64,000 nucleotides of DNA, from positions 2,069-66,068 of the forward strand of contig WOYX01000009.1 in assembly GCA_011620595.1 (NCBI GenBank), written 5' to 3'. The stretch comes from Bacteroidales bacterium (GTDB taxonomy: Bacteria; Bacteroidota; Bacteroidia; Bacteroidales; VadinHA17). Of this stretch, positions 4,631 to 20,256 are shown in pieces (the stretch's first letter is position 1; each line of letters starts with the position of its first letter). A program made the translations under genes and the position numbers. The notes beneath the pieces were generated by a model that was given only the letters and a program-made list of their open reading frames with translations, did not search any database and had not been told where the DNA came from.

Positions 4631-4669
4631 TAATCAAATAACCGAATGAAACAATAATAAAATAATCGG

Positions 4670-4963: not shown

Positions 4964-5065
4964 AGTCTTTATAAACGGAAATAACTCCGGCCGATTATTT
5001 CATAGCGCCAGGCAGCCTGGGGTATACGTGAAGTCTGAGGCAGCCTGCCGCGACCAATTAAAATT

Positions 5066-5155
5066 AAAGAGTAACGACGCTCCCCGCGGGCTGATGTAAT
5101 TCGCTGAATAATAAGATGTAACGACGTCCCGCAAGGGCGTCGTTACTCTTTAATG
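5066..5155 (+). terminator. Hairpin set with mutually exclusive pairings (terminator-like GNRA hairpin 5118-5151 plus an upstream competing arm 5066-5080)
   Basis: aaagagtaacgacgc (5066-5080) is the perfect reverse complement of gcgtcgttactcttt (5137-5151). A second copy, gtaacgacg-tccc (5118-5130), pairs with the same 3' arm around a gcaa loop. A weak U-tract (tcttt) follows. Confidence 0.4.
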
Positions 5156-5252
5156 CACATTCCCGGCGTTATGTTTTGCAGCATTTTTATTTCCGAAAGG
5201 AATAATTTCTATTTTTATGGCGGAAGAATCACCAATCTTAAAACACAAAATC

Positions 5253-5690: not shown

Positions 5691-5755
5691 TCTTGGAAAG
5701 CAGCTTTTCATTATGTTAGTTATAATCCCGCTTCTTTATCTGTACACCATCTGGG

Positions 5756-6367
5756 ATGAGTGATCAGGAACTGGTAAAGGCCGTTATCAGGGGAGATAAC
5801 AGTGCCATGCGCGACCTGATATCCAAATATCAGGAGCTGGTGCTGAACACCTGTTATAAGGTCTTACAGTCACGGGAAGATGCCGAGGATATTGCCCAGG
5901 AGGTATTTATAGAGACATACCGCTCCGCTGCGGGTCTGCGGTACGAGGATGACATATCATTCTGGCTATACCGCATCTCACTTAACAAGTCGATAAATCA
6001 CCTCAAGCGATCGCAAAATATACTCTTCCGTTCGCTGATGCAGATAGAGTCTCTCTTCCATCATGATAATGCCAGGAACGTGTTTCCGGAACCGCATTCA
6101 GATGACCATCCGGGCGAAAGCCTGGAAGCAGCCGAGAGGGATGAGATTGTTAAAAAGGCTGTGGCAACCCTGCCGGCAAACCAGCAGAAAGCCTTTATCC
6201 TTTTTTACTACGAGGAGCTTTCCTATAAAGAGATAAGCAACGTGCTGGGACTGTCGGTAGCATCGGTTGAATCACTTCTTTTCCGTGCGCGTGAAAACCT
6301 GAAGAAAAGATGCTGTCCCGACCATCCGAAAAAAAAGGAATCTAAAACTTCAAATCATGATACCTGA
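5756..6367 (+). CDS. ECF (sigma-70 family, group 4) RNA polymerase sigma factor
   Basis: 203 aa. Region 2 is EDAEDIAQEVFIETYR...WLYRISLN. The region 4 HTH is SYKEISNVLGLSVASVESLLFRARENLKK. Confidence 0.9.
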   Translation: MSDQELVKAVIRGDNSAMRDLISKYQELVLNTCYKVLQSREDAEDIAQEVFIETYRSAAGLRYEDDISFWLYRISLNKSINHLKRSQNILFRSLMQIESLFHHDNARNVFPEPHSDDHPGESLEAAERDEIVKKAVATLPANQQKAFILFYYEELSYKEISNVLGLSVASVESLLFRARENLKKRCCPDHPKKKESKTSNHDT

Positions 6368-6881
6368 AAAAACCAACAGGATTTTGCTTTGGTTCAACCT
6401 GATCCTGATCCTGATCATCACATCGGCTGTAGTTACTTTCCTGGTAATGAAAAGCGCGGGTGAGAAGCAAACTAATAACCCGGGAGTGATCAATTCCATG
6501 GACATGCTCCGCAAGGAGCTCAGCCTTACTGATGAACAGTACCGGAAAGTTCTGTTGGAGAATGACCGGACAACCCGGACATACAATATTGTCTTTGACA
6601 TGATGTGCGAGACCAATGTGGCAATGATTGAGGAACTGGCAAAGGAGTATAGTGACCCGGCCGTACTTGACAGCCTCTCCAGGAAGGTGGGAACACTCAG
6701 TGCCTCACTCAGAAGGCACACCACCGACTATTTTATGAACCTGAAAAGCATCTGCAATGAGGATCAGCAAAAAGAGCTTACAGAGATCTTCAAGAGAATG
6801 ATGCAGCTCGATGAATTATGCGAGAGCTGCAACAAGAGAGATTGCCCCAGAAGAGAACGGATCAACAACATCGGAAAATAA
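6357..6881 (+). CDS. Membrane-anchored periplasmic LTXXQ protein (Spy/CpxP/CnrX-like, the periplasmic heavy metal sensor family)
   Basis: 174 aa. It has an N-terminal TM (ILLWFNLILILIITSAVVTFLVM), an LSLTDEQYRKV motif and a helical remainder. It overlaps the sigma stop by 11 nt. Confidence 0.6.
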   Translation: MIPEKTNRILLWFNLILILIITSAVVTFLVMKSAGEKQTNNPGVINSMDMLRKELSLTDEQYRKVLLENDRTTRTYNIVFDMMCETNVAMIEELAKEYSDPAVLDSLSRKVGTLSASLRRHTTDYFMNLKSICNEDQQKELTEIFKRMMQLDELCESCNKRDCPRRERINNIGK

Positions 6882-6957
6882 TTTTCTGTAGTGACCGCAG
6901 GTTTCAGGCTCCTCAATTGTCTTTTTATTGAGCGTTCATATTTATTCAAATCAAATC

Positions 6958-7290
6958 ATGACAGATTATTTTTCTGAGCTTGCCAATAACTATAAAGGCA
7001 AGCGAATAGATGTTCCCGACACATTCGCTGACGATGTCATGTCCAGAATTGAGCGACGGAGGGAGGGGGGATTCAGATCTCTGTCGGTGCCTTCGCGGAT
7101 ACTTCTCTCCACAGTGGTGCTGGCAATTTACTGTTCACTGGGAGTCCTGCTGGGATTAAAGTGCTACAGCGACCTTAAACCTGACGGTAACTCATCTTCC
7201 CACGAGGCCCTGGTTGAACTTATGGACTCACACTACATGAGTACAGACCTTCTTCACGATCCGTTCTTCAGAAATTTTGTCTGTAAATAA
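6958..7290 (+). CDS. Small single-pass membrane protein, putative anti-sigma factor
   Basis: ATG at 6958 (the ORF track starts at a TTG at 6928). It has a cytoplasmic N-terminus and a TM (ILLSTVVLAIYCSLGVLLGL). It is the third gene of the sigma module. Confidence 0.5.
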   Translation: MTDYFSELANNYKGKRIDVPDTFADDVMSRIERRREGGFRSLSVPSRILLSTVVLAIYCSLGVLLGLKCYSDLKPDGNSSSHEALVELMDSHYMSTDLLHDPFFRNFVCK

Positions 7291-7314
7291 TTCATTAATA
7301 CATGACTCAACCGG

Positions 7315-7394
7315 ATGAAACTTACATGAGCTGCAACCAACTACAGGATATGGTCACTTTATTATATGTAAGTTCCATTAGACCAATAAAATAA
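7315..7394 (+). promoter_or_regulatory. Conserved inverted-repeat element, copy B
   Basis: It has the same two arms as copy A (7315-7331 and 7366-7394). It lies in the 119-nt gap before the polyferredoxin gene, and arm 2 ends 15 nt before the ATG at 7410. Confidence 0.6.
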
Positions 7395-7409
7395 GAATTT
7401 ACTAATCTG

Positions 7410-9329
7410 ATGAAAAAGCAAAACTGGTACAAGCTCCTTTATCAATTTGCGATAATTGGTGTTCTCACATTTATGGGCTTCCGTCTGCTCTTTGACAAGG
7501 CTTATGCACCCGACTTCGAGGCTTACTGCCCGTTTGGAGGACTACAGGCACTGGGGAGCTACCTTACCATGGACTCCCTCTCATGCTCCATGACCAGCAC
7601 GCAGATTATGATGGGGGTGGTCCTCTTCATTGGTATAGTGCTCTTCTCCCGGCTCTTCTGCGGATACATATGTCCCCTCGGCACTGTGGGAGAGTGGATA
7701 GGCAAGCTGGGCGACAGGCTGAAAGTGAGAATAACCCCTAAGGGTTTTGTTGACTATGCCCTCCGCCTTCCAAAGTACGTCCTACTCTTTATAACATTCT
7801 ACTTCACCCTGAAGTCGAGTGAGCTTTTCTGCAAGAAGTTTGACCCTTACTATGCCGTTGTCTCCGGCTTTGACAGTGATGTTGTACTGCTGTGGGCTCT
7901 CCTGGCCATCGTTGCACTTGTAGTCGGATCGCTCTTTGTAAGGCTCTTCTGGTGCCGCTATCTGTGCCCCCTGGGAGCCCTGTCGGCGATATTAAAGTTC
8001 TCATGGTGGTTCCTGGGTGTGATGGCACTTTATGTAATACTGATCCTGGTAGGTCTTGATATATCATATGTATACCCGCTCCTGGTAATTACCGCCGGCG
8101 GATATATCCTTGAGGTGACACGGATGAAAAAGGTGTGGCCTGATCCGGTGCATATCACGCGTAACACGGAAACCTGCATTGACTGCGGTCTCTGCTCTGA
8201 AACCTGTCCCCAGGGTATTGACGTGGCACAGATGGAGAAGGTGACCCATACGGACTGCACACTTTGCGGCGACTGTCTCCATGCATGTCCCGAAAAGGAT
8301 ACGCTCCTGATCAACAAAAAGAATATGAAGTGGCTTCCCGCAGTAGTGCTGGGAGCACTTATCATCCTGGGCATTGCCGCAGGCAGCCTGTTCGAGCTGC
8401 CCACCATTGATCAGAAGTGGGGCACCACTGAACAGGTTAAGAGTGCCGGAGTCTTCGAGATGGAAGGATTGAAGAACATCAAGTGCTTTGGCAGCTCTAC
8501 GGCTTTTGCCAACCAGATGCGTAGGCACGAAGGCATCTACGGTGTCTCCACTTTCGTGGCAAACAATAAGGTGCGGGTGCTGTATGACACATCGCTTTAT
8601 GACGACGAGAAGCTGCAGCAGCTTATGTTTGTACCCGTGAAGCGGGTCATCAGACCGGTGACAAATGATGTTGACTCGGTGATACACTACACCCTCACCA
8701 TTGATAAGTTCTTCGATCCCCTAGATGCTACCTATCTGCAGCATCTGCTCAATCAGAAGACTGATGCCTGCGGTTTCCAGACTGAATTTGCCTGCCCGGT
8801 GATAGTGCGAATATACTTCCCGGCAGGGAAAGAGCCCGGCAGAGAAGCCCTGACGGAGGTTATTGAGTCAAAAAACCTGACTTTCACCTCCAATGATAAT
8901 GAGTTTCATGTCAAGCTGCCCTATAAGGTCATTACCTTCGATGAAAAGCCTCTGAAAATGTCAAAGAGAGAATATGCTTCAGCCATGTTCGTTCCGACAA
9001 TCTCACGCTTCAACGGATTCTCAAATTTCTCGGATGATGTTGTCTCTAAATATATCCTCATGATGGGCACAAACTCGTCACACAAGGCCAGGTATACATA
9101 CCTGGTCAGCCACCTCTCAAATGATGACGGCATAATAGCCTTCGAAACCGCCCTGGACTCATTGGGGGCGGAGATGGGTGTGATCCACTACGTTGACACG
9201 GTCACCGCTCCTGACAACATCTATGCGGCTGTCAATGCCGATACCCTTGTCTTCCATTACACTGACGGCCGTACAGGCAAGCTCGCAAATCCCTTCAGCT
9301 TCCCTGATCCCGGCACTGTCAAAAAATAG
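7410..9329 (+). CDS. Integral-membrane polyferredoxin (NapH/NosR/MauN-like 4Fe-4S protein) with a long C-terminal extracytoplasmic extension
   Basis: 639 aa. It carries CPFGG, CGYICPLG and CRYLCPLG motifs and two ferredoxin motifs, CIDCGLCSETCP and CTLCGDCLHACP. These are followed by a TM (LPAVVLGALIILGIAAG) and about 300 aa with three beta-alpha-beta-beta-alpha-beta-like repeats. Confidence 0.85.
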   Translation: MKKQNWYKLLYQFAIIGVLTFMGFRLLFDKAYAPDFEAYCPFGGLQALGSYLTMDSLSCSMTSTQIMMGVVLFIGIVLFSRLFCGYICPLGTVGEWIGKLGDRLKVRITPKGFVDYALRLPKYVLLFITFYFTLKSSELFCKKFDPYYAVVSGFDSDVVLLWALLAIVALVVGSLFVRLFWCRYLCPLGALSAILKFSWWFLGVMALYVILILVGLDISYVYPLLVITAGGYILEVTRMKKVWPDPVHITRNTETCIDCGLCSETCPQGIDVAQMEKVTHTDCTLCGDCLHACPEKDTLLINKKNMKWLPAVVLGALIILGIAAGSLFELPTIDQKWGTTEQVKSAGVFEMEGLKNIKCFGSSTAFANQMRRHEGIYGVSTFVANNKVRVLYDTSLYDDEKLQQLMFVPVKRVIRPVTNDVDSVIHYTLTIDKFFDPLDATYLQHLLNQKTDACGFQTEFACPVIVRIYFPAGKEPGREALTEVIESKNLTFTSNDNEFHVKLPYKVITFDEKPLKMSKREYASAMFVPTISRFNGFSNFSDDVVSKYILMMGTNSSHKARYTYLVSHLSNDDGIIAFETALDSLGAEMGVIHYVDTVTAPDNIYAAVNADTLVFHYTDGRTGKLANPFSFPDPGTVKK

Positions 9330-9386
9330 CCTCCGAAACCTGTAACCATATAACCCTGACAAAAACTGATAACTGACAAACGCCAT

Positions 9387-10271
9387 ATGTATGCAATAGA
9401 GTGCAAAAACCTCACCCACTATTACGGGAAGAAGCTGGTCTATGAAAACCTGAGCTTCAATGTCGAAGAGGGCAAGATACTAGGTCTTCTTGGCAAAAAC
9501 GGCACCGGGAAGTCAACCACTATTAACATCCTCAACGGGTTCCTGCAGCCCTTTTCAGGGGAGTGTCTCATCTATGGGGAGAATACCCAGACACTCACCC
9601 CGGAGACCAAGAGAAGGATAGGGTTCCTGATAGAGGGACATATCCAGTATTCCTTCATGAATATTCACCAGATAGAGAAGTTCTATTCCGGATTTTATCC
9701 TGACTGGAACAGCGCACCTTACTGGGAGCTGATGTCAAAGCTGAAGGTCACCCCGAAGCAAAGGATCTCAACCATGTCATGCGGTCAGCGCTCTCAGGTG
9801 GCACTGGGACTCATCCTGGCACAGAATCCGGACCTGCTGATACTTGACGACTTCTCCATGGGCCTCGACCCGGGATACAGGAGACTCTTCATTGATTATA
9901 TGCGTGAGTATGCCAAGGCTGAACATAAAACAGTCTTCGTCACCTCTCATATTATCCAGGATATGGAGCGGCTGATAGACGATGTGATGATCATGGATTA
10001 TAACAAGATACTGGCGCAGCAGCCCGTGGAACAGTTCATGAACACCTTCAGGCAGTTCAATATCACCCTCACCTCTCCTCAGCAGGAGGTTGACCTCGAC
10101 GGCATTGCAGTCAACATAGAAAAGGTCAAGGATAAGATTGAATTCTATACTTATTCCACGGAGGATGAGGTTAAGAACTATCTCGCATCAAAAGGTATTG
10201 ACTACAGCTCATTTGAGGAGAGAAAGATGTCACTCGAAGATGCATTTATAGGACTCACACGCAAGTATTAA
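9387..10271 (+). CDS. ABC transporter ATP-binding protein (ABC-2/NosF/GldA-like class)
   Basis: 294 aa. Walker A is GKNGTGKST, the signature variant is MSCGQRSQV, and Walker B is LLILDD. Confidence 0.9.
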   Translation: MYAIECKNLTHYYGKKLVYENLSFNVEEGKILGLLGKNGTGKSTTINILNGFLQPFSGECLIYGENTQTLTPETKRRIGFLIEGHIQYSFMNIHQIEKFYSGFYPDWNSAPYWELMSKLKVTPKQRISTMSCGQRSQVALGLILAQNPDLLILDDFSMGLDPGYRRLFIDYMREYAKAEHKTVFVTSHIIQDMERLIDDVMIMDYNKILAQQPVEQFMNTFRQFNITLTSPQQEVDLDGIAVNIEKVKDKIEFYTYSTEDEVKNYLASKGIDYSSFEERKMSLEDAFIGLTRKY

Positions 10272-10288
10272 CCCTGAATATAACACAC

Positions 10289-10957
10289 ATGCTTAAATCA
10301 ATATTGTATAAAGAGTGGATCAAGATCAGGCTGGTTGTCTGGATAGCATTGGGCCTCGGCCTGCTTGCCCTGATCAATATTTTCCTTAAGGTGCGTCATG
10401 ACATACTGTTTGTCGATGCCGCGAATTACTGGTATTCATTTCTTTTCAGGGGCTATACCTATTTCAGTATCCTGAAGTTCCTGCCTTTTGTCATTGGCCT
10501 TGCAGTAGCAATAGCACAATACTTCCCGGAGACAGTCAACAAGCGATTAAAGCTGACGTTTCATCTTCCCGTCTCCGAGAACGGCATACTGATCAAGATG
10601 CATGCATTCGGAGCGGTGATACTTCTGGCTCTTTTCCTGGTCCTGCTGGGGCTTTTCACTGCCGGCAGTGCCATCTTCTTTCCTTCAAACATCATCAGGG
10701 CATCCCTGCTGACCATCTTGCCCTGGTTTCTGGGCGGTATGGCTACCTATTTTCTGGTTGCACTGATACTGCTCGAGCCAATGTGGATCTTCAGGGGACT
10801 CTATACGGCAGTGGCTGCAGGGTTTGTGACAATCTTCTTCACCAGTGCATCAATCGGCGCCTTCAGTCCGGTGCTTCTGCCACTCACGCTGATCACACTT
10901 GTTCTTAGTTGTGTTGTTTTATTTTCAGGTTACAGGTTCAGGAAAGGAGAGATGTAA
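10289..10957 (+). CDS. Polytopic membrane protein, putative ABC-2-type permease partner
   Basis: 222 aa with about 6 hydrophobic segments. It lies 17 nt after the ATPase gene and 1 nt before the next gene. Confidence 0.65.
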   Translation: MLKSILYKEWIKIRLVVWIALGLGLLALINIFLKVRHDILFVDAANYWYSFLFRGYTYFSILKFLPFVIGLAVAIAQYFPETVNKRLKLTFHLPVSENGILIKMHAFGAVILLALFLVLLGLFTAGSAIFFPSNIIRASLLTILPWFLGGMATYFLVALILLEPMWIFRGLYTAVAAGFVTIFFTSASIGAFSPVLLPLTLITLVLSCVVLFSGYRFRKGEM

Positions 10958-10958
10958 G

Positions 10959-12206
10959 ATGATAAAGTTCAGCAGATATATATTAGTGGCAACAGGTATC
11001 CTGGTAGCATCGATAGTGCTGCCGTCACTGTTCTGGACAATCTTTGAGAAGGTTCCCAGGTCACCCAATATCTTCTACAGCACCATTACGGAAGACTTTG
11101 TGATTGTTGACGGCAGTAAGAAGAAAAATCCGAAAGGGGAGGAATACACCTCAGAAGAGTATGAAAAGATTCTTCCCTTCATGTTCTTCAGGCAGCTGAT
11201 GGCTGACGGTACGATGCCCGATTCCATCCACGGCGTGCTGATGGAGGCTCCCTCAATAAGCAGGGCCTCATCATTCTACAGGTATACACCGAAAAGATTC
11301 GACTCTCCGGTTCCCACCCTCTGGCCCATGTTTGAATCACAGAGCGGAAAGGTAAACCTCTCAATGCCGGAAGACTATTTCCGGATTGAAAAAAGGATGG
11401 AATTCATTGTGGCCAGAACAAACGAGGTCAACGAGGAGAAGAGCAGCCTCTTTACCGCTGCCCTTGCTGAAGAGGGATTCTCCTTCCCGGCAAAGATCAT
11501 AGCCGGCATTCCCACTACGAGGAAATCATGCGACGAGGGATATTTCATCACCGACAACGCAGGGGCACTCTTTCATGTAAAGATGATCAAGGGGCAGCCC
11601 TACGTTGTGCGGATTGAAACCCCGGAGGAGCTTGATATAGTTTATATTGAAGCTGTAGATATCAGAAGCAAAGAGTATTACTGTTATGTTTTTACACGTA
11701 ATAAGGGTATATTTGTGGTAATGGATGAGGTTTATGACCTCCAGCGCCTGCCGGTTGACGGGTTTAATCCTTCGCTTCATACATTCAAGCTTACCGCTGA
11801 TCTGTTCAATAAGTGCATCACCGTTATGGGAAGTAACTGGTATGAGGCAATAGCAATTGATGACATGTATAATGTTGTGGCCACTCACGGGGAGGAGTGG
11901 GAAGATCTGTATGATAGACCTGACGGCAAGATGTTTGCTTCACTCTTTCCGTTTGAGATACGGATGAGGGACGACAACTCTTCATTTGTAAGATTCTACT
12001 TCAAGCCTTCACCGGGCGTAAGGTGGCTCATTGTTAACCTGCTTGCCCTGATAGCGGCAGTGGTGCTGATCATCAGGCGCGGATGGCCGCTTAGATCCAA
12101 TATTCCCGATCTGCTGATTACGGCCGTTACAGGAGTGTACGGGCTGATTGCCACACAGTTCTTTCCGAACAAATTCAGTAAAGTGAAACCTCCAGCCAAA
12201 AACTGA
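10959..12206 (+). CDS. Bitopic membrane protein with a large periplasmic domain (DUF4857-like, from memory of Bacteroides annotations)
   Basis: ATG at 10959 gives MIKFSRYILVATGILVASIVLPSLFW (an N-terminal TM), then about 350 aa of soluble domain and C-terminal TMs (WLIVNLLALIAAVVLII, LLITAVTGVYGLIATQFF). The ORF-track start at 10899 overlaps the previous gene. Confidence 0.7.
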   Translation: MIKFSRYILVATGILVASIVLPSLFWTIFEKVPRSPNIFYSTITEDFVIVDGSKKKNPKGEEYTSEEYEKILPFMFFRQLMADGTMPDSIHGVLMEAPSISRASSFYRYTPKRFDSPVPTLWPMFESQSGKVNLSMPEDYFRIEKRMEFIVARTNEVNEEKSSLFTAALAEEGFSFPAKIIAGIPTTRKSCDEGYFITDNAGALFHVKMIKGQPYVVRIETPEELDIVYIEAVDIRSKEYYCYVFTRNKGIFVVMDEVYDLQRLPVDGFNPSLHTFKLTADLFNKCITVMGSNWYEAIAIDDMYNVVATHGEEWEDLYDRPDGKMFASLFPFEIRMRDDNSSFVRFYFKPSPGVRWLIVNLLALIAAVVLIIRRGWPLRSNIPDLLITAVTGVYGLIATQFFPNKFSKVKPPAKN

Positions 12207-12210
12207 CAGA

Positions 12211-15099
12211 TTGAAAAAGTTACTTTCAATAGTGGTATTGCTAGGCTTTGCCCTGGTGCTGACGGGACAGACACGGCCGTCGATGCAGGGCAAGGTCATC
12301 TGCCGGAATACAGGAGAGCCGGTTATGATGGCGACCGTAGTTGTCAAGGAGCTTAACATCTGGGCTACCACCAATGATTCCGGCGAATTTGTGCTGCGGA
12401 ATGTCCCTTCCGGGACATATACCCTGGTTGTCTCATGTCTGGGTTTTATTGAACATGAGCACCCGGTTACCTTCCCGGTTCGTGAAGAGAAGGTCACCGT
12501 CCTGATTGATGAGGCCACCCTCGCCATTGAGGATGTGGTGGTGACAGCCAAGGAGGGGCGGCGCATAGCCTCCGGGTCGGTGATAGAACAGTCGGCCATA
12601 CAGCATGTGCAGCCCACCGACTTGTCCGATGTGCTGCAGCTGTTGCCGGGCCAGACGGCACTAAACCCTGACCTTTCAAGACCCAAACAACTGACAATCA
12701 GGGAGATCATCAGAAAAGACGGCTATATAGGCGATAATATGGCCAGCCTGGGGACTCTGCTAATTGTTGACGGGGCACCGGTATCCAATGATGCCAATAT
12801 GCAGTTTCTCAAGACTACCGGTGCATCAACGGGCGTTACTGCCGGGTTTGCCACCACAGCATCAGGCGGAACGGATGTCAGACAGATAGCTGTTGACAAT
12901 ATTGAGACCATAGAAGTAGTAAGAGGTATTGCGGGTGTTGAGAACGGTGATATGCTCAGCGGTGCTGTCAAGGTAACCATGAAGAAGGGAAAGACCCCCT
13001 TCACCGCCAAAATTAAAACAGACCCCGGGATAAAGCAGTTCTATGCCGGAAAGGGTCTGGCACTTGGAGACAGGGCAGGTACACTAAACCTCGACTTTGA
13101 CTATACGCAGTCTTTTGATGACATAAGGGTAAAATATAAGACCTTCAACAGGTTCAACGGCGGTTTGATCTATAACAACACCCTGTTCAGGGAAAGCAGG
13201 CCGCTCACCCTGAGCCTTTCGGCACGTGGATCCCAGACCCTCGATGTCAGCAAGAACGATCCCGATATGCTTGATATCGAGGACTATGAGGCAAAGGATC
13301 AGGGTCTCTCCATAAACCTTAACGCAAAATGGGCCATGAACTCCGCGGTGCTGACAAACCTGAACCTGATGGTCTCAGGCAACATACAGCACCAGGTGGG
13401 CCATGAGGTCACCATGGAGGAGATACCCTCAGGTGCCCAGCCGCAGCCGATGGCTTATGAGCCGGGAGAGAACCAGGTACCCATACTGCCCTCCTCATAT
13501 ATCAGCGATCTCACCATCGACGGACGTCCCTATTATTACAATGCAAAGCTGTCAGGCAACCGGTCGTTCAATATCGGTAAAGTCCTCAACAACATTGTTG
13601 CCGGGGTTGAATACAGACTCATCGGAAACAACGGCCTGGGAAGGGTCTATGACCTGTCGCGGCCGCCGGTACCTGTCGGTGGAACGGATGCAAGACCGAG
13701 GTCATACAAGGATATTCCATCCCTGGGACAGCTGGCGTACTATGCCGAAGAGAACCTGGGTATACCGATTGGCAAGACAAGGCTCGACCTGCAGGCCGGC
13801 CTCAGATTCACCAATGTACAGCCCGAAGGCATCTTCAGGTCAAAGGAGCAGACCACCATGCTTGACCCCCGGTTTAATGCCAGGTATACTGTTATCGACA
13901 ACGGAAAGGGAGCTGTATCTCATCTGGCATTCAGGGGCGGCTACGGCCTCTTCTCCAAAGCCCCGTCACTGCTCTATCTTTACCCGGACAGGGCCTACTG
14001 GGACAAGACCGGTCTCAGCTATTACGATCCGGTTGCACAGAGGGGCCTGTTCGTAGTGACAACCAAGATATTTGAGAATCCACGCAACGAAAACCTGGTC
14101 CCGGCGGTAAACCGCAAAATTGAAGGCGGATTTGACCTGACAGTCGAAAATATTGACCTGAATATCACTCTCTATTCCGAGAAAATGGAGAACGGTTTCA
14201 GCTTCGAATCATACTATGAGAATTTTATTTTCAACAGGTACACACAACCGTTGGAGAACGGCCTGGAGCTCTACTTTGTACCCGGCTCGGGAGTATTCTA
14301 CGTCGACCCTGTCGCAGGTACCGAGGTGCAGCTGCCGGTGGTACAGGATACCGTGTTCGTCAGCTTCACCTATCCCGGGAATGGCACCATGACAACAAAA
14401 AAGGGTGTTGAGTTTACCCTCGACCTCGGCACGGTAAGAGCGTTACGTACCTCCTTCATCATTGACGGTGCCTGGATGACGGTGAAGAGGCAGACAACTG
14501 TGTGTGATCTCACCAAGCCCTCCTCGGGCAGCATCGGCGGGAAGGAGTTCCCCATGGTTGCACTCTATCCTGCCGGATACGGCAGCATTGACAAGCGCTT
14601 CAATACCAACATCAGGACCATCACACATATCAGGGAACTGCGCATGGTGGCATCTGTGACTACACAGATAATCTGGATGGACCGTGACCAGAGTGTCTGG
14701 GATGACCCTGACGGCAATCCACTGTTCTATACCAATCCTGCTGTTGATGACCCGTATGCCGATAAGCTCTACCCGAAATATGTTGACCCCCTGGGCTATT
14801 ATGACCGTCAGATGGTTTACCATGAGTTCGACCGTGCCCTGGCAGTCACCAAACCTTACTCTGACCTGATAAAACGGTATAATACCCCCTGGTACTTTGC
14901 CGAGACAGGCTACCCTCCGTACTTCGTTATAAACTTCAAGCTCACAAAGGAGATCACTGACAAGGCCAATTTCTCATTCTATGCAAATAATATTACCAAT
15001 CATAATCCCCTGATAAAACAGCGTGGGGGCGCTCCTGAAGTCTATGCACGCAGGAACCCTCCTCTCTATTTTGGTGCAGAGATAAAGATCAAATTCTAA
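12211..15099 (+). CDS. TonB-dependent receptor with an N-terminal carboxypeptidase-regulatory-like domain
   Basis: 962 aa with a TTG start and a signal peptide. The CarboxypepD_reg-like stretch is GKVICRNTGEPVMMATVVV...TNDSGEFVLRNVPSGTYTLVVSCLGF. The plug region is DLSDVLQLLPG. The C-terminus ends in Phe (EIKIKF). Confidence 0.9.
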   Translation: MKKLLSIVVLLGFALVLTGQTRPSMQGKVICRNTGEPVMMATVVVKELNIWATTNDSGEFVLRNVPSGTYTLVVSCLGFIEHEHPVTFPVREEKVTVLIDEATLAIEDVVVTAKEGRRIASGSVIEQSAIQHVQPTDLSDVLQLLPGQTALNPDLSRPKQLTIREIIRKDGYIGDNMASLGTLLIVDGAPVSNDANMQFLKTTGASTGVTAGFATTASGGTDVRQIAVDNIETIEVVRGIAGVENGDMLSGAVKVTMKKGKTPFTAKIKTDPGIKQFYAGKGLALGDRAGTLNLDFDYTQSFDDIRVKYKTFNRFNGGLIYNNTLFRESRPLTLSLSARGSQTLDVSKNDPDMLDIEDYEAKDQGLSINLNAKWAMNSAVLTNLNLMVSGNIQHQVGHEVTMEEIPSGAQPQPMAYEPGENQVPILPSSYISDLTIDGRPYYYNAKLSGNRSFNIGKVLNNIVAGVEYRLIGNNGLGRVYDLSRPPVPVGGTDARPRSYKDIPSLGQLAYYAEENLGIPIGKTRLDLQAGLRFTNVQPEGIFRSKEQTTMLDPRFNARYTVIDNGKGAVSHLAFRGGYGLFSKAPSLLYLYPDRAYWDKTGLSYYDPVAQRGLFVVTTKIFENPRNENLVPAVNRKIEGGFDLTVENIDLNITLYSEKMENGFSFESYYENFIFNRYTQPLENGLELYFVPGSGVFYVDPVAGTEVQLPVVQDTVFVSFTYPGNGTMTTKKGVEFTLDLGTVRALRTSFIIDGAWMTVKRQTTVCDLTKPSSGSIGGKEFPMVALYPAGYGSIDKRFNTNIRTITHIRELRMVASVTTQIIWMDRDQSVWDDPDGNPLFYTNPAVDDPYADKLYPKYVDPLGYYDRQMVYHEFDRALAVTKPYSDLIKRYNTPWYFAETGYPPYFVINFKLTKEITDKANFSFYANNITNHNPLIKQRGGAPEVYARRNPPLYFGAEIKIKF

Positions 15100-15115
15100 C
15101 CTTAAATCCAATATC

Positions 15116-16321
15116 ATGAAAAAATGTTCAATCTTTCTGGTTATCATTCTTGCGGGAGTGGCAGCACTTACCTCCTGCGAGAAGGGAGCACAACTCTATG
15201 ATGTAACCATCTCGGCTTACTATCCCGAGGGTTACGGCGATGATCTTGCCTCCGATGTTAATATTCTGATAGAGAATACCATCTCGGGCCAGAAGTTTAA
15301 CCTTGTGACCAACACTCTCGGCACTGCCTCAATAGCACTCGAAGAGGGGATGTATAAAATATCGGCCACCAAGGAGACAAGTGATTTCTACCTTAACGGA
15401 ATAACAGAGAATCTGACAGTACAGCCCACCGGGGCAAACAACTGGGATGTACACCTGGTGGCTACCTCAAAAAAGGGCGGTCTTGTCCTCAAGGAGATCT
15501 ACTACACGGGCTCCAAGACCGAGACAGGCAGCAATTACTATTCGGACCAGTTTCATGAGATCTACAACAACAGCGATGAGGTGGTCTATCTTGACGGTCT
15601 CTGCATCGGACTCACCTGGCCAGTATCATCATCTCCTACCGAGTTTGTAAATCCTGACGGGTCGATCATGGACCGGATACCGACTTACTTTCATGCCCTG
15701 ATGTTCCCGGGCACGGGTCAGCAGTACCCGCTGCAGCCCAGAACCAGCGTCGTACTGGCCATGGATGCCATAGACCACCAGACAGACCCGCTGGGCAATC
15801 CGCTCTCTCCTGTAAATCTTGGAAGTGCACAGTTTGAGGCTTTCATTGAGGCCCCCGGCAAGGATACAGACGCCCCGCAGGCTGCAAATATGATTGTGAT
15901 GTACACTACCTCTACGTCAATGTATGACTGGCTACATTCAGTCTTTGGCCAGGGAGTTATCATTTTCAGGTTGCCGACAGGACTCGACTGGCAGACCTTT
16001 GTTGCCAATCCCGACAACTTCATGACCAGGCCAGGCTCCACATCGACCACAGAGTATCTCATGGTTGATAAGGACTGGGTTATTGACGGCGTGGAATGCA
16101 ACCGCCCGGAAGAGGACAAGAGATTCAAGAGGCTGCCTACCTCTGTTGACGCCGGTATGGTCTGGAGCCTTGCCACCTACAACAGCAAGAGCGTAAGACG
16201 TAAGGTTGAAAAGATCCTTGACGGAAAGGTCATCTACAAGGACAGCAACAACTCTTACAACGACTTTATCAATGATCTGGATCCAACACCCTTTGTTCAT
16301 CCGACAACCGTTGACGACTAG
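15116..16321 (+). CDS. Surface/periplasmic lipoprotein with a lamin-tail-domain-like module (DUF4876-like)
   Basis: 401 aa. The lipobox is AALTSC. The N-terminal domain looks Ig/CarboxypepD-like. LVLKEIYYTGSKTETGSNYYSDQFHEIYNNSDEVVYLDGLCIG resembles the LTD core motif. Confidence 0.7.
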   Translation: MKKCSIFLVIILAGVAALTSCEKGAQLYDVTISAYYPEGYGDDLASDVNILIENTISGQKFNLVTNTLGTASIALEEGMYKISATKETSDFYLNGITENLTVQPTGANNWDVHLVATSKKGGLVLKEIYYTGSKTETGSNYYSDQFHEIYNNSDEVVYLDGLCIGLTWPVSSSPTEFVNPDGSIMDRIPTYFHALMFPGTGQQYPLQPRTSVVLAMDAIDHQTDPLGNPLSPVNLGSAQFEAFIEAPGKDTDAPQAANMIVMYTTSTSMYDWLHSVFGQGVIIFRLPTGLDWQTFVANPDNFMTRPGSTSTTEYLMVDKDWVIDGVECNRPEEDKRFKRLPTSVDAGMVWSLATYNSKSVRRKVEKILDGKVIYKDSNNSYNDFINDLDPTPFVHPTTVDD

Positions 16322-16401
16322 CTGACACAATAAAGCGAGTGTGCCGGGACAGGAATAAACAGCCTGTCCGGCACCCCGCTTTAATTAACTGAATAACCCG
16401 G

Positions 16402-17979
16402 GTGATGAAGAATCTGACAGTTTTGCGTTTACTGATATGTCTGATTATGGCCGGACTTGCCGGTACGGTATCTGCGGCAGACACTATTGCGGTGCCGCGG
16501 GGCAGCCGTGCCTTTGATATCATGCCCTTTGTCCTCCCCTGGACAGGCACTTCAAACCCGGCCGCACTGTCGGAGACCAGCTTCGGTAACATCAGTCTGG
16601 CACAGGCAGGATATACCAGCTCAGATGATGATATCAGGATGATACAGCAGCCAGTTCAATACTCCTCGTATCAAGCAGCTACCAGGGGATTTATGAAGCT
16701 CGGAAAGGTCTCCCTGTTCGGATCATTCGGATACTCCAACTCCGGTTACAAGGGTGTTAATTACAACGGCACCATGATGTTCGATACCTACAATCCATAC
16801 CTTGTAGGAGATTCGGTATCCGCAAGACAGACCAGGGAACAGTTCGGCATGGAGGGGAAACTGAGCTATACAGTGAATGACAGAATTAATGTGGCCGTTG
16901 GTGCAGAGTACATCTCTGCCGTCGGGGCCAGACAGAAGGATCCACGCAACAAGAACACCATCTCTATGCTGAGGGTCACTCCCGGGATAACCTATGACCT
17001 GGGTAAAACAAAAGTCGGTCTCTCAGGCTCGGTATATACAACCAGCAATGAGATGTCCTACAGGGTTGAAGGTAACTGGAACCAGAACCTGTTCGTTTTC
17101 CTGGGCCTCGGTTACTTCAGGCAGGAAATCAACATTTCATCCTATTCGCAATGGTACGTGGGCAATGGCTATGCCGGGGCACTCCAGGCTTCGCGTGAGG
17201 GCGATGACCTATACATGATAGCTGAGATAAGCTATGATCATTACACTGAAGAAGCCAGATCAGGCAGCTCTTTCAGATTGATTGACGGCATTACCGAGAC
17301 AAATGACATCTCACTGTCAGGGATGCTGAGGATAGAACGGGGCCAGGCTTTTCATATCCTCACCGTCAAGGGATCACTGAAGGCAGTGAGCGGTGACGAG
17401 ATACTGCAGCGATCATACAAAATCAATGCGGGGACCTATTCATATGACTCGCTTGCAACGGTAAGCTGGATAGAGAATAAACAGATGATAACCGACCTGG
17501 GCGGTGAGGTGAAATATACACGGATAGTTTATGACAGCGATTTCAATATCGACCTGGAGTTTGGGGGAGCTCTGCTGGCCAGCTACTACTCCACCGAGCA
17601 TTTCCCGGTACAGAGCTACGGATTTTATAATACATTTAACCTTGGCGGATCACTCTTTGCAAGGAAGCTACTGAAAACGAGCCGGCTGCTCATAACCCCG
17701 GGACTGGAGGCCGGTTACCGGATGAACATCGGATACGATATATCATATATCATTCAGCCACTGAGCATCCCGGCCATGGTATATCATGACTACTATGTCG
17801 CTAAAGCAAATATTATCAGTGCATCAGCATCCGTCAGGATTGAGATGCCCTTAAGTCAGAACAAATTTGTAAAATCATTGTTCCTTATTCCGCAGGGCCG
17901 GTATGCTGCGGCTCCGGGTTCTGAGGCCGGAGATCTGTCAGGGTATATGATAGATGTTGTGGCCGGGCTCACATTCTGA
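16402..17979 (+). CDS. Putative outer-membrane beta-barrel protein (DUF6850-like)
   Basis: 525 aa. The start is GTG at 16402 or ATG at 16405. It has a signal peptide ending VSAAD, alternating Y/G/S-rich amphipathic strands, and a terminal ...VVAGLTF. Confidence 0.65.
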   Translation: MMKNLTVLRLLICLIMAGLAGTVSAADTIAVPRGSRAFDIMPFVLPWTGTSNPAALSETSFGNISLAQAGYTSSDDDIRMIQQPVQYSSYQAATRGFMKLGKVSLFGSFGYSNSGYKGVNYNGTMMFDTYNPYLVGDSVSARQTREQFGMEGKLSYTVNDRINVAVGAEYISAVGARQKDPRNKNTISMLRVTPGITYDLGKTKVGLSGSVYTTSNEMSYRVEGNWNQNLFVFLGLGYFRQEINISSYSQWYVGNGYAGALQASREGDDLYMIAEISYDHYTEEARSGSSFRLIDGITETNDISLSGMLRIERGQAFHILTVKGSLKAVSGDEILQRSYKINAGTYSYDSLATVSWIENKQMITDLGGEVKYTRIVYDSDFNIDLEFGGALLASYYSTEHFPVQSYGFYNTFNLGGSLFARKLLKTSRLLITPGLEAGYRMNIGYDISYIIQPLSIPAMVYHDYYVAKANIISASASVRIEMPLSQNKFVKSLFLIPQGRYAAAPGSEAGDLSGYMIDVVAGLTF

Positions 17980-17983
17980 AACT

Positions 17984-20134
17984 ATGAAGAGATCAATCAT
18001 ATCAGCAGTGTTGGCGTTAACCCTGTTAACGCCAACATTTTCTCAGTCCCTTAAGGGCGAGTTTGCAATCGTAGCCGACAGCAAATCACTGACTGTGGCA
18101 GGTAATGAGATAAGCGAATATGCAGCCGTGCTTCAGGCAGAAGGCCTTGATGCGGTTATCATAGAGGACCGCTGGAAGCATGCCGACTCAATAAGGCATT
18201 TACTGCATGAGATGTATGTCTCAAGCCGGGGATTGGAGGGAGCGGTGTTCATCGGCGAGATCCCCGTGCCCATGCTCCGTGATGCACAGCACCTCACCTC
18301 GGCCTTCAAGATGGACCAGCAGCGATACCCGTGGAACAGGTCGTCAGTGCCTTCTGACAGGTTCTATGAGGACTTTGACCTTGAGTTTACATTTCTGAAG
18401 CCTGACACAAACGGGCTCTATTTTTACTACAGCCTGAACCCCTCATCAGTGCAGGTGCTCACCCCGGACATCTACAGCGGACGTATCCGGATTCCTGACG
18501 ACAGTGACGGGTCAAAACTGCAGGCATACCTGCGGAAAGTAATTGAAGCACACAGGAACCCGGATATCGTTGATGAGCTTCTTTTCTTTGCCGGTCATGG
18601 ATACAATTCCAATTCCATGACAGCCCGTATCGATGAGAAGGCCGCCCTCCTGCAGCAGTTCCCGCAGCTCAACAGGCAGGACAATGGGCTGGAATACATT
18701 GACTATACCTTTGACGAACATATCAAAAACCGTCTTCTTTCAACCATGACCCTTGAGATGATCGACATTGCTCTTCTGCATCATCATGGATCAACCGACG
18801 CTCAGCTGGCCGGTTCTGAGCAGGCCGCCAACGGCGTTCAGCAGAATATTGAGAGCATTAAATTCTACCTCCGTTCAAAGGTAAGGGGTGCAAAAGACAC
18901 CGTGGAGGCCAAGAATAAATACATGGAGTGGCTGGGAGTCCCCGATGAATGGTTCAGGGGAGCAAACGAGAAGGAACAGACTGAGATAGATTCAGCCTGG
19001 TTTGCGGATATGGACATCATTGCTCAGGATGTGGCAGAATATGATATCAAGACCAGGTTCATCATGTTCGATGCCTGCTTCAACGGTTCATTCCACCGTG
19101 ATGAATTCATCTCGGGAGCATATGTCTTCGGAGACGGAAGAACAGTGGCGGCACAGGCCAACACTGTCAACTCGCTTCAGGACAAATACCCCAATGAGAT
19201 GGTCGGCCTGCTCTCATACGGCATGAGGGTGGGAGAGTGGAACCGGATGGTATGCTTCCTGGAGTCCCACATTATCGGCGACCCCACCTTCAGGTTCGCT
19301 TCATCGGACCCGAAGCTTGACGCGGACAGGATGATGAAGAACGCAGGCAAGAACGGCAGGCTGCTGAAGCTGGCTGACTACCCGCATCCTGATGTGCAGA
19401 GCTGGGCTCTCTGGCACCTGAAATCGAACGGTTACCCGGGCATAAGCGATCTGCTTAGTGAAAAGTACTTCAGCTCGCCTTACGCCGTAACCCGCATGTC
19501 GGCACTGAAACTGCTTGCAGAGATAAAGGATGATAATTTCGTTAAAGTTACTGCCGCTGCGCTTGACGACTCGTATGAGCTTGTTCGCAGGTTCGCCGCC
19601 ATATACTGCCAGGAGTCGGGCGACCCGCGGCTGGCACCGGCACTGATAAGGCTGGTTACTGACCCCAATGTCTCAAAGAGGGTGAACTACCAGGCTGTGG
19701 ATGCGCTGGCATATTTCGACAGCACACTTCTTATGCGGGAGCTTGATAAAAGATTTGAGGGTATTGATACGGCAAATCACCTCGGAACCATATACAGACA
19801 GACTGCGGCAAACATAAGTAAAAGAGCCGGTTATCCGCGCGAGAGCATTGAGACTGTAACAGGAGCGAATGTCACCGAGAAGAACAGGCTCTTTGAAATC
19901 AGGTCACTGCGCAACCTGACATACCACACCCTCATTGAGCCATTGTGTGAATATGTTCTCACCGCTCCCGGAGAGAATCTGGAAGTTGCACTTATCGAGG
20001 CTCTCGGCTGGTTTAACTATAGCTATAACAGGCAGCATATAATTGACACCTGCAACACCATCATGGCTGACAGTGAAAGGTTCCCGGAGCCGGTGCGTCT
20101 TGAGGCACAGCGGACGATTAATCGCCTTAGATAA
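17984..20134 (+). CDS. Secreted protein: N-terminal alpha/beta domain with His-Gly...Ala-Cys motifs fused to C-terminal HEAT repeats
   Basis: ATG at 17984 gives MKRSIISAVLALTLLTPTFSQS (a signal peptide). It contains LFFAGHGYNS, IALLHHHGST and RFIMFDACFNGSF. The C-terminal third has HEAT-like repeats (ALKLLAEIKDDNFVKVTAAALDDSYELVRRFAAIYC..., LIRLVTDPNVSKRVNYQAVDALAYF). Confidence 0.7.
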   Translation: MKRSIISAVLALTLLTPTFSQSLKGEFAIVADSKSLTVAGNEISEYAAVLQAEGLDAVIIEDRWKHADSIRHLLHEMYVSSRGLEGAVFIGEIPVPMLRDAQHLTSAFKMDQQRYPWNRSSVPSDRFYEDFDLEFTFLKPDTNGLYFYYSLNPSSVQVLTPDIYSGRIRIPDDSDGSKLQAYLRKVIEAHRNPDIVDELLFFAGHGYNSNSMTARIDEKAALLQQFPQLNRQDNGLEYIDYTFDEHIKNRLLSTMTLEMIDIALLHHHGSTDAQLAGSEQAANGVQQNIESIKFYLRSKVRGAKDTVEAKNKYMEWLGVPDEWFRGANEKEQTEIDSAWFADMDIIAQDVAEYDIKTRFIMFDACFNGSFHRDEFISGAYVFGDGRTVAAQANTVNSLQDKYPNEMVGLLSYGMRVGEWNRMVCFLESHIIGDPTFRFASSDPKLDADRMMKNAGKNGRLLKLADYPHPDVQSWALWHLKSNGYPGISDLLSEKYFSSPYAVTRMSALKLLAEIKDDNFVKVTAAALDDSYELVRRFAAIYCQESGDPRLAPALIRLVTDPNVSKRVNYQAVDALAYFDSTLLMRELDKRFEGIDTANHLGTIYRQTAANISKRAGYPRESIETVTGANVTEKNRLFEIRSLRNLTYHTLIEPLCEYVLTAPGENLEVALIEALGWFNYSYNRQHIIDTCNTIMADSERFPEPVRLEAQRTINRLR

Positions 20135-20220: not shown

Positions 20221-20256
20221 AAAAAAAGAGGCAAGTCCTGAGACCTGCCTCTTTCG
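20221..20256 (-). terminator. Rho-independent terminator for the EF-G paralog (possibly bidirectional)
   Basis: The stem agaggca (20227-20233) / tgcctct (20246-20252) has a 12-nt loop. Read on the minus strand it is followed by seven T; on the plus strand only by ttt. Confidence 0.7.

Follow-up and report, generated by a model that had tools for sequence, protein, structure and literature searches.

A Bacteroidota gene cluster with a polyferredoxin, an ABC module and a TonB-dependent transporter, and its possible part in the acquisition of a scarce metal

The DNA analyzed here is a stretch of 64,000 nucleotides (nt) from contig WOYX01000009.1 of a Bacteroidales bacterium (hereafter, the window). 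At 7410-20134 it carries a cluster of eight genes whose predicted products reach through the whole cell envelope: an inner-membrane polyferredoxin, an ATP-binding cassette (ABC) ATPase, a polytopic membrane protein, a DUF4857 protein, a TonB-dependent transporter (TBDT), a DUF4876 lipoprotein, a DUF6850 protein and a protein with HEAT repeats. The eight open reading frames (ORFs) were found again on the + strand at the coordinates given by an earlier note on this DNA, separated by 57, 17, 1, 4, 16, 80 and 4 nt, and two of them have non-ATG starts (TTG for the ORF 12211-15099 and GTG for the ORF 16402-17979). Protein families were assigned with Pfam and NCBIfam profiles, topology was read from hydropathy and N-terminal sequences, and folds were taken from AlphaFold2 models that were searched with Foldseek against the PDB. 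The common strand, the gaps and the envelope locations described in the earlier note agree with our ORF calls, hydropathy, signal peptides and lipobox motifs. The families that it expected (DUF4857, DUF4876, DUF6850 and a NapH/NosR-type protein) were all matched as well, with the NapH/NosR scores far below the model cut-offs. The features of the cluster and its surroundings are collected in Table 1.

Table 1 Features of the cluster (genes g1 to g8, in order) and of its surroundings in the window
Feature	Position	Strand	Basis
g1, inner-membrane polyferredoxin, 639 amino acids (aa)	7410-9329	+	Fer4_5, Fer4_10, Cys motifs
g2, ABC ATPase, exporter-type (ABC-2/ABCA-like) subclass by its matches	9387-10271	+	ABC_tran
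g3, polytopic membrane protein, 222 aa, about 6 transmembrane (TM) segments, presumed permease partner	10289-10957	+	hydropathy, position
g4, DUF4857 protein	10959-12206	+	PF16149, AlphaFold2 model
g5, non-SusC TBDT	12211-15099	+	CarbopepD_reg_2 + Plug
g6, DUF4876 lipoprotein, predicted TBDT surface lid	15116-16321	+	PF16215, lipobox LTSC
g7, DUF6850 protein, probable outer-membrane beta-barrel	16402-17979	+	PF21012, signal peptide, C-terminus
g8, predicted secreted gingipain-like (Peptidase_C25, clan CD)/HEAT-repeat protein, 716 aa	17984-20134	+	HEAT_2, weak Peptidase_C25
Small lipoprotein, 145 aa	5253-5690	+	lipobox LATSC; family-less
Extracytoplasmic function (ECF)-type sigma factor	5756-6367	+	Sigma70_r2, Sigma70_r4_2, TIGR02937
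Membrane-anchored periplasmic protein, 174 aa, candidate sensor of the ECF module	6357-6881	+	N-terminal TM segment, five invariant Cys
Single-TM protein, 110 aa, candidate anti-sigma factor	6958-7290	+	position and topology
Lineage-specific spacer with 13-nt inverted repeat	7291-7409	+	comparison with relatives
Terminator-like hairpin 3' of P-II-like gene	5118-5146	+	12-bp stem, 7 GC pairs, T-rich tail
Candidate promoter region of the operon (tentative)	5165-5225	+	block aligned across relatives
Hairpin between convergent genes, bidirectional terminator-like	20225-20254	.	13-nt arms, 92% complementary

A DUF4857 profile search of species-representative genomes returned 80 loci, and the window proteins were compared with these loci by tblastn. 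Loci were cut at a 10-kb flank, and co-occurrence was counted in the 43 loci of at least 19 kb (hereafter, long loci). All 80 loci are from Bacteroidota except one 2.5-kb contig that was binned as an archaeon, and the co-occurrence of the genes outside this genome, which the earlier note had asked to be checked, was found across Bacteroidota. The ATPase, the polytopic protein (hereafter, the 6-TM protein), the DUF4857 protein and the DUF4876 protein each occur in 43 of the 43 long loci, the TBDT in 41, the DUF6850 protein in 39 and the HEAT-repeat protein in 20. The count of the polyferredoxin (32/43) is a lower bound, as its C-terminal end is often visible at the edge of a locus. Of the loci long enough to show it, nearly all have a homolog of about 640 aa in first place, whichever of the two gene orders they have. 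The conserved core consists of seven families, and the cluster genes of the long loci are all on the same strand. The order of the window (g1-g2-g3-g4-g5-g6-g7-g8) is kept in a Rikenellaceae-labelled group; in Prolixibacteraceae, Draconibacterium, Maribellus and Tangfeifania the order is g1-(propeller)-g5-g6-g7-(g8)-g2-g3-g4, with the transporter module first and the ABC module last. The DUF4857, ATPase and 6-TM genes are adjacent in 43/43 long loci, and the 6-TM gene sits between the other two wherever it was seen (74 loci). That the genes stay linked in spite of such reordering speaks well for a functional unit, and recurrence in 80 loci from different species goes far beyond chance.

Several observations on single loci were also made in this search. 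Bacteroidales bacterium UBA4772 matches the window at about 97% identity. One metagenome-assembled genome (MFD04716.bin.1.420) has two copies of the whole cluster on different contigs (loci L009 and L017), locus L033 has two DUF4857 paralogs, and loci L042 and L068 have two DUF4876 matches each, like BT3631-32 of Bacteroides thetaiotaomicron. The contig labelled as archaeal (L037, PWGL01000007.1, 2.5 kb, binned as 'Candidatus Pacearchaeota archaeon') encodes a Bacteroidota-type 6-TM protein and a DUF4857 protein, and is probably mis-binned.

The polyferredoxin matches Fer4_5 (E 2.5e-12) and carries a dicluster ferredoxin domain (Fer4_10). Its two CX3CP motifs (C84-x3-C88-P89 and C182-x3-C186-P187) and its two CX2CX2CX3CP motifs (C256/259/262/266-P267 and C283/286/289/293-P294) are invariant in 30 homologs, and the same was found for C359, C462, H568 and H616 in its C-terminal tail. 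The specific NCBIfam models scored 53.5 against a cut-off of 213 (NapH, TIGR02163), 43.5 against 234 (PRK09477), 30.8 bits against 316.7 (CcoG, TIGR02745) and 43 bits against 1000 (NosR, NF046105, with only residues 73-194 matching). With scores so far below the cut-offs, membership of NapH proper or CcoG proper was rejected, and by its motifs the protein belongs to the broad NapH/MauN/NosR/CcoG family and to none of its named subfamilies. It has five hydrophobic segments, one of them a TM segment after the Fe-S domain, and then a tail of 310 aa. We infer that this tail is periplasmic, because the Fe-S domain must be cytoplasmic and one more TM segment follows it. In the AlphaFold2 model the tail has a predicted local distance difference test score (pLDDT) of about 85-90 and the pattern beta-alpha-beta-beta-alpha-beta, that is, tandem ferredoxin-like modules, and it was found only fused to this kind of polyferredoxin.

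The polyferredoxin gene also occurs without the cluster. In sister genomes, homologs with 73-76% identity, one of them seen on more than 90 contigs, stand at the same chromosomal position in a backbone (245-4963 in the window; L084-L088). This backbone reads TetR, outer-membrane efflux protein, membrane fusion protein, resistance-nodulation-division (RND) permease, P-II-like protein (PG0541 family), polyferredoxin, a convergent gene resembling that of elongation factor G (EF-G), rpsL, rpsG and fusA. The stand-alone copies have neither the ECF module nor the other seven cluster genes nearby. In L087 the slot 3' of the polyferredoxin holds tetratricopeptide repeat (TPR), SusC/SusD and Ank/metallophos genes instead, and this slot behaves like an insertion hot-spot. 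The other cluster genes look like accessory insertions on both sides of the polyferredoxin in the lineage of the window. A shorter variant of about 533 aa (proteins P0270-P0313), which matches only about 63% of the tail, occupies the stand-alone backbone position in L084 and L085. About 35 nt before their ATG, the stand-alone genes have a Bacteroidetes promoter of canonical form, TTTG-N19-TATATTTG (L086:7140-7186, L087 and L088). This promoter has no counterpart in the window spacer at 7291-7409, which is not homologous to the promoter region of the stand-alone genes, and its absence there is consistent with read-through from the ECF genes. We read the polyferredoxin as a putative reductase that would serve the cluster where the cluster is present, yet is not exclusive to it.

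In the ABC module, the best NCBIfam matches of the ATPase are PmtA, GldA, DrrA and NodI, all below cut-off (GldA, 129 bits against 402.6), and its nearest solved nucleotide-binding domains are those of ABCA3, ABCA1 and ABCA4. By these matches the ATPase is of the exporter-type subclass. The 6-TM protein gave no Pfam match even at E <= 10 and its profile found nothing in the PDB; it is presumed to be the permease partner, from a family not described before. The DUF4857 protein matches PF16149 (E 6e-83), and its AlphaFold2 model (pLDDT 87, predicted template modelling score 0.79) has an N-terminal TM segment, a beta-rich periplasmic domain and two or three C-terminal TM helices. The nearest PDB structures in Foldseek are generic WD40-type propellers (E about 1e-3, TM score about 0.26), with nothing at E < 1e-3, and the DUF4857 sequence profile had no match in the PDB; the modelled periplasmic domain may be called propeller-like. 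The cluster has no periplasmic substrate-binding protein.

In the outer-membrane module, the TBDT has a signal peptide, a CarbopepD_reg_2 domain (N-terminal CarboxypepD_reg-like domain) and a Plug domain, and its homologs carry TonB_dep_Rec_b-barrel; its sequence had no match in the PDB at E < 0.01. Membership of SusC was rejected, with 44 bits for the SusC model against a cut-off of 368. The DUF4876 protein matches PF16215 (E 6e-44) and is homologous to PDB entry 4q1z (E 7e-40), which we take to be BT_1938. Two proteins of this type in B. thetaiotaomicron, BT1938 and BT3632, have been predicted by AlphaFold-Multimer to be lids of TBDTs, with an opening of about 20 Angstrom left in the predicted DUF4876/TBDT complexes, and the DUF4876/TBDT pair is adjacent in 59-81 genera (bioRxiv 10.1101/2023.03.17.533168). 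The DUF6850 protein matches PF21012 (E 7e-70), has a signal peptide and ends in ...GLTF, with G522 and F525 invariant; its profile found no match in the PDB. It is probably an outer-membrane beta-barrel, to judge by the invariant C-terminal G..F typical of such barrels.

The C-terminal third of the last protein consists of HEAT repeats (HEAT_2, E 1e-11), and the protein has a signal peptide; no sorting tail of the type IX secretion system (T9SS) was found on it. Its N-terminal 450 residues contain the conserved stretches FFAGHGYNS (GHGYNS at 204-209) and IMFDACFNGS (DACFNGS at 363-369), and H205 and C365 are invariant among the homologs. Such His-Gly and Ala-Cys patterns are those of clan CD peptidases, and the Cys motif is presumably close to that of gingipain R. 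About 160 residues separate the His from the Cys, a much longer spacing than in gingipains. The Peptidase_C25 model (PF01364) gave 17-18.7 bits for the window protein, below the cut-off of 23, and matched 4 of 14 homologs (best E 3.5e-6). The last gene seems to encode a putative, gingipain-like peptidase domain fused to HEAT repeats, a combination that is new here.

This last gene stands in a slot that varies between lineages. In the loci of the Prolixibacteraceae type, the accessory slot holds a propeller of 780-800 aa resembling BNR, sortilin and Ycf48 proteins with a T9SS sorting tail, and in one locus it holds an SBBP propeller, also with a T9SS tail. Four accessory propellers were scanned (L036:381-2729, L053:4431-6827, L053:6883-8196 and L030:6603-8324), and three of the four have a T9SS C-terminal sorting domain; the 437-aa protein of L053 has no such tail. 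The tails on the three propellers indicate surface or secreted proteins, and a constant core with a changeable secreted protein is what would be expected if the variable protein meets the cargo. In L031, two Peptidase_S46 genes (DPP7/DPP11-like, 1882-6368) lie directly upstream of the ECF-lipoprotein-sensor-ABC part, and in L033 a similar Peptidase_S46 gene by its N-terminal sequence (85-2328) seems to be split into two ORFs. These S46 genes beside the cluster may be a coincidence or a hint of a peptide cargo.

Four genes upstream of the polyferredoxin (lipoprotein, ECF sigma factor, 174-aa protein and 110-aa protein) travel with the cluster in many loci, including distant ones at 35-50% identity, and in most relatives a gap of only about 20-30 nt parts the last of them from the polyferredoxin gene. 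The earlier note had taken the ECF module for part of the surroundings; it is probably part of the unit rather than its context. Homologs of the 145-aa lipoprotein adjoin the cluster in 19/43 long loci, including loci without the ECF genes, and this protein had no match in Pfam or NCBIfam. The sigma factor scores 107.7 bits with TIGR02937 (cut-off 42.9). The 174-aa protein has one N-terminal TM segment and five Cys (C84, C133, C155, C158 and C163, in a pattern that includes CxxC-x4-C) that are invariant in 12 homologs. Its full-length resemblance to Metal_resist (PF13801, CnrX/ZraP-like) is weak (E 0.11), and its profile found no CnrX, ZraP or Spy structure in the PDB. CnrX is not known to have five such invariant Cys, and in the 174-aa protein they suggest a metal or redox sensor. 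The 110-aa protein has a TM segment at residues 48-66, adjoins the gene of the 174-aa protein in 16 loci and had no family match in Pfam or NCBIfam; it is a candidate anti-sigma factor from its position and topology only.

The transcription unit probably comprises twelve genes (5253-20134), which is the most economical reading of the sequence, because the upstream ECF genes sit close to the polyferredoxin gene in most relatives and the strong hairpin at 5118-5146 ends the RND operon. A -7-like box (TATTTTTA, 5210-5217) lies in a block that is conserved upstream of the lipoprotein gene in relatives (L014 reads TACTTTTG). A bipartite ECF-like motif at this place was left as tentative, as its spacing varies between relatives (17 or 19 nt). 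The strict Bacteroidetes promoter TTTG-N18-22-TAnnTTTG had no match anywhere inside the cluster. The spacer at 7291-7409 (119 nt) is common only to the window and its four closest relatives (L001-L004). It contains a 13-nt inverted repeat (7315-7327, ATGAAACTTACAT; 7366-7378, ATGTAAGTTCCAT) whose arms look by eye less complementary in L002 and L004. A riboswitch or structured RNA upstream of 7410 was rejected, since Rfam at gathering thresholds gave no match anywhere in the window, the spacer folds no better than shuffled sequence (z = -0.03) and it is missing from most relatives. The 'conserved regulatory element' reported at this place is thus a lineage-specific spacer. Less is also left of the metal-flavoured context once suggested for the cluster. 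The multidrug model NF033617 fits the upstream RND permease clearly better (758 bits) than the CusA/CzcA model TIGR00914 (470), although neither score reaches the cut-off of its model, and the P-II-like protein belongs to the PG0541 family of transporter-associated proteins, so that a heavy-metal efflux context was rejected as evidence for a metal.

Downstream, the hairpin at 20225-20254 lies between the cluster and a convergent EF-G-like gene. It fits the terminator of that minus-strand gene better than one of the cluster, because an A-run precedes it and only a weak T-run (TTTCGT) follows, and this agrees with the terminator, weak on the strand of the cluster, that had been placed in this gap. 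Two EF-G-like genes flank rpsL-rpsG, a pairing that is kept in L086 and L088. An EF-G-like paralog of 718 aa (20286-22442, -) is convergent with the cluster, and a 700-aa ORF (23754-25856, +) is at the fusA position, with homologs in L086 and L088 that have EF-G domains.

Loci related to the cluster are known from expression studies. In B. thetaiotaomicron, BT3625-33 comprises DUF4857, a hypothetical protein, an ABC ATPase, two PepSY_TM proteins, a fimbrillin, two DUF4876 proteins and a TBDT, and all nine genes are up 37- to 128-fold on iron depletion and also up in a colitis model; BT1933-39, with a HEAT-repeat protein, DUF4876 and a receptor, is up 3.5- to 7-fold, and PG1019-22 of Porphyromonas gingivalis is up 21- to 214-fold (PMC10434189). 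The DUF4876 gene of P. gingivalis differs between hemin conditions by a log2 fold change of -5.4, and HmuY changes in the same direction (PMC10470040); its expression is also raised when a hemH mutant grows without heme, in a report of March 2026 where PG1019/PG1020 is still an 'uncharacterized transport system' (PMC13096392). The families that BT3625-33, BT1933-39 and PG1019-22 between them have in common with the window are DUF4857, the adjacent hypothetical membrane protein, the ABC ATPase, DUF4876 and the non-SusC TBDT, and the HEAT-repeat protein is common to BT1933-39 and the window. The trio of DUF4857, ABC ATPase and 6-TM protein that is adjacent in the long loci is annotated in BT3625-27. 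BT3625-33 differs in having two PepSY_TM proteins where the window has a NapH/NosR-type polyferredoxin, and a fimbrillin-like protein (BT3630) where the window has the C25-like/HEAT protein; the window has the ECF sigma/sensor module, and the gene order differs. PepSY_TM gave no match on any of the 12 proteins of the window, nor in the scanned ORFs of the fetched loci. Polyferredoxin and PepSY_TM reductase appear to hold the same functional slot, the PepSY_TM side of which rests on the published annotation of BT3628-29 (PMC10434189).

The literature search returned only expression tables and the lid-prediction preprint, and no functional study of the cluster, DUF4857, DUF6850 or this polyferredoxin was found in it. 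The cluster type was thus previously noticed in Bacteroides and Porphyromonas and never explained, and the window has its version with polyferredoxin, C25-like/HEAT protein and ECF module. The novelty once claimed for the system stands in that no functional characterisation was found, but not in full, because homologous loci induced by iron or heme starvation and the lid prediction for DUF4876 had already been reported.

On this evidence we give an even chance to the reading of the cluster as a TonB-dependent system of the starvation type, specific to Bacteroidota, for acquiring a scarce metal, most likely bound iron, in which the polyferredoxin is a reductase directed to the periplasm. Members of the NapH family are electron carriers for reactions in the periplasm, and CcoG reduces metal (cupric) ions. 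A role of the polyferredoxin as a periplasmic metal reductase is proposed because PepSY_TM proteins take the same slot in BT3625-33 and because of this electron role of the NapH-like family. At the surface, the DUF4876 lipoprotein would cap the TBDT and help to capture the cargo, and the DUF6850 barrel would be a third outer-membrane partner, perhaps as another conduit or in the assembly of the surface lipoprotein. Processing or holding of the cargo in the periplasm may fall to the gingipain-like/HEAT protein. With its 2x[4Fe-4S] and CX3CP sites, the polyferredoxin would accept electrons of cytoplasmic or quinol-pool origin and pass them to its periplasmic ferredoxin-like tail, where the metal would be reduced and released; in the B. 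thetaiotaomicron version, PepSY_TM reductases of the FoxB/XusC type would do this job. The ABC ATPase, the 6-TM protein and the DUF4857 protein would spend ATP on carrying either the freed product or the empty carrier through the inner membrane, or alternatively on a conformational hand-over in the periplasm, as in NosDFY. Expression would be controlled by the ECF sigma factor, the Cys-rich sensor and the anti-sigma-like protein. Cargo and metal are inferences in this scheme, as are the direction in which electrons flow and what the ABC module, the DUF6850 barrel and the peptidase-like protein do.

A number of points weigh against the acquisition of a metal as the function. The expression evidence comes from loci of B. 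thetaiotaomicron and P. gingivalis, and neither metal nor cargo can be read from iron chelation or colitis; a Fur-type site was not identified. With an exporter-class ATPase and no substrate-binding protein, import through the ABC module is not the default expectation. The polyferredoxin is kept alone with its own promoter in sister genomes and so has a function without the cluster. The N-terminal half of its AlphaFold2 model is poor (pLDDT about 40-55), and Foldseek found no PDB match for the model at E < 1e-3, only weak similarity to generic tandem ABM, HMA and ACT folds. The TBDT/lid pairs of B. thetaiotaomicron were without phenotype in 519 fitness experiments (bioRxiv 10.1101/2023.03.17.533168), and BT1933-39 and PG1019-22 have the outer-membrane module but no ABC module (PMC10434189). 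The redox-assisted, TonB-gated metal pathway that the earlier note had put forward remains the best reading, except that its polyferredoxin is not exclusive to the cluster and stands alone in sister genomes.

A more far-reaching form of the acquisition reading would make the cluster a new class of TonB-dependent acquisition system. The exporter-fold ATPase, the 6-TM protein and the membrane-anchored DUF4857 propeller would replace the usual periplasmic binding protein and importer and would act with the polyferredoxin, so that ATP and electrons jointly strip the metal from its carrier in the periplasm. In some lineages the carrier might be a protein or peptide cut by the gingipain-like peptidase, and DUF6850 would be a dedicated partner of the lid lipoprotein or a device for its export to the surface. 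We consider this form possible but rather unlikely.

The other explanations are taken in falling order of probability. The genes may be independent neighbours, namely a housekeeping polyferredoxin of the RND/P-II backbone, an ABC/DUF4857 module and a TBDT/DUF4876/DUF6850 module. The lone polyferredoxin with its promoter at the same position in sister genomes, the unrelated genes (TPR, SusC/SusD) in the slot of L087 and the outer-membrane modules of BT1933-39 and PG1019-22, which lack the ABC module, would all fit this. But the modules are kept together on one strand with short gaps across Bacteroidota orders in spite of the permuted order, the nine genes of BT3625-33 respond jointly (37- to 128-fold), and the polyferredoxin of the window has lost the stand-alone promoter, which together make mere neighbourhood improbable.

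If instead the ABC module is an exporter, it could secrete a metallophore, a peptide, a hemophore-like factor or an emptied carrier, and the TBDT with its lid would take the loaded form back. The ATPase is closest to exporters such as PmtA, DrrA, NodI and those of the ABCA type, no substrate-binding protein is encoded, and the uptake gate and the exporter are always encoded together. Pyoverdine, which is recycled after periplasmic reduction, offers a precedent. Against this, genes for the biosynthesis of a carrier were found neither in nor beside the cluster in the window and the loci examined, and simple export leaves the large propeller-like periplasmic domain of DUF4857 unexplained, so that we would not expect such a recycling to be the main function.

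An assembly machine like Nos would not feed the cytoplasm but would serve a client in the periplasm or at the surface, in which it would make or mend a metal centre (Cu, Fe or S) by an ATP-driven periplasmic hand-over, with the ATPase, 6-TM and DUF4857 proteins corresponding to NosF, NosY and NosD, the polyferredoxin to NosR/NosH, the TBDT to NosA and the lipoprotein to NosL. The topology does match subunit for subunit, the substrate-binding protein is missing here too, and the variable accessories (the HEAT/C25-like protein, the T9SS-secreted propellers and the fimbrillin-like BT3630) could be the clients. However, NosR reaches only 43 bits of the required 1000, NosD and NosY have no match, DUF4857 is modelled as propeller-like, and the cluster has no nosZ or cupredoxin. 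The candidate clients vary by lineage while the core is constant, and the starvation induction of the homologs alongside known uptake loci fits acquisition better, which makes the assembly machine quite doubtful. The weakest explanation is a protein or peptide cargo as in Pectobacterium, where the TBDT FusA, the periplasmic protease FusC and the ABC transporter FusD take iron from ferredoxin: here a protein or peptide that bears a metal would enter through the TBDT and be broken down in the periplasm by the gingipain-like peptidase, leaving the released cofactor to the polyferredoxin and ABC module, and although this precedent, the clan-CD peptidase-like domain with conserved His and Cys motifs in the operon, the opening of about 20 Angstrom in the predicted DUF4876/TBDT complexes and the S46 peptidase genes directly upstream of the cluster in L031 and L033 speak for it, it is hardly probable, since the peptidase-like protein is present in only 20/43 long loci with non-peptidase propellers elsewhere, its C25 match in the window is below the Pfam cut-off, and the protein is a putative peptidase of putative location.

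If ATP and electrons do free a metal in the periplasm as the acquisition reading proposes, nutrient metal would be taken up in a way that has not been described before, and this would bear on how gut and oral Bacteroidota withstand the nutritional immunity of the host. The related loci are among the genes most strongly induced by iron or heme scarcity in B. thetaiotaomicron and P. gingivalis, and are also induced in the colitis model. Five or more families of the cluster are without known function, and cultured hosts of the system include Maribellus luteus, Draconibacterium species and B. thetaiotaomicron.

The cluster was compared with a number of known systems. The ECF sigma factor, the membrane-anchored, helical candidate sensor of the periplasm and the small single-TM protein, encoded together in the window, would have their counterparts in CnrYXH, but the gene order differs, the module of the window is attached to an uptake cluster and not to an efflux cluster, and its sensor matches Metal_resist only weakly (E 0.11). 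The two CX3CP and two CX2CX2CX3CP motifs of the NapH/MauN/CcoG family are all present in the polyferredoxin of the window, whose subfamily alone has the extra TM segment and the 310-aa periplasmic tail. FusABCD has a TBDT encoded with a periplasmic peptidase and an ABC transporter, and Slam loci have a TBDT with a surface lipoprotein and an extra outer-membrane barrel, and the window, by its predicted products, resembles both. These two likenesses lie in gene content, and neither FusC (M16) nor the Slam barrel (DUF560) is known to be related in sequence to the window proteins.

The parallel to Nos and Gld, which had been drawn from the first reading of the sequence, holds at the level of topology but not of membership. 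Like the window, Nos (NosR/NosH with NosDFY, NosL and NosA) pairs a membrane polyferredoxin of the CX3CP/2x[4Fe-4S] type with an ABC ATPase of exporter type and its 6-TM and periplasmic partners, and adds a lipoprotein and a TBDT. NosR carries its periplasmic flavin domain at the N-terminus, where the window polyferredoxin has no periplasmic domain; its own predicted one is C-terminal. NosD gave no match in Pfam or NCBIfam, DUF4857 being modelled as propeller-like instead, and neither NosY nor any other ABC-2 membrane family matched the 222-aa protein. NosZ was not found among the eight cluster and ten flanking proteins scanned, in line with the absence of nosZ or an obvious enzymatic client that had been pointed out before. 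Membership of NosDFY/NosR was rejected, as the specific models were far below cut-off or without match. GldAFG has, like the window, an ABC-2-type ATPase, a 6-TM permease and an auxiliary protein with N- and C-terminal TM segments around a large periplasmic domain, and it is likewise specific to Bacteroidota, but Gld is not linked to a TBDT. Membership of GldAFG was also rejected, with 129 bits for GldA against 402.6 and no match to GldF or GldG. XusABC (BT2063-65) differs in its lid (DUF4374) and its reductase (PepSY_TM), and is without the ABC module, the DUF6850 barrel and the peptidase/HEAT protein; like the window, it combines a TBDT, a surface lipoprotein lid and an inner-membrane reductase, and Xus lies within the low-iron regulon.

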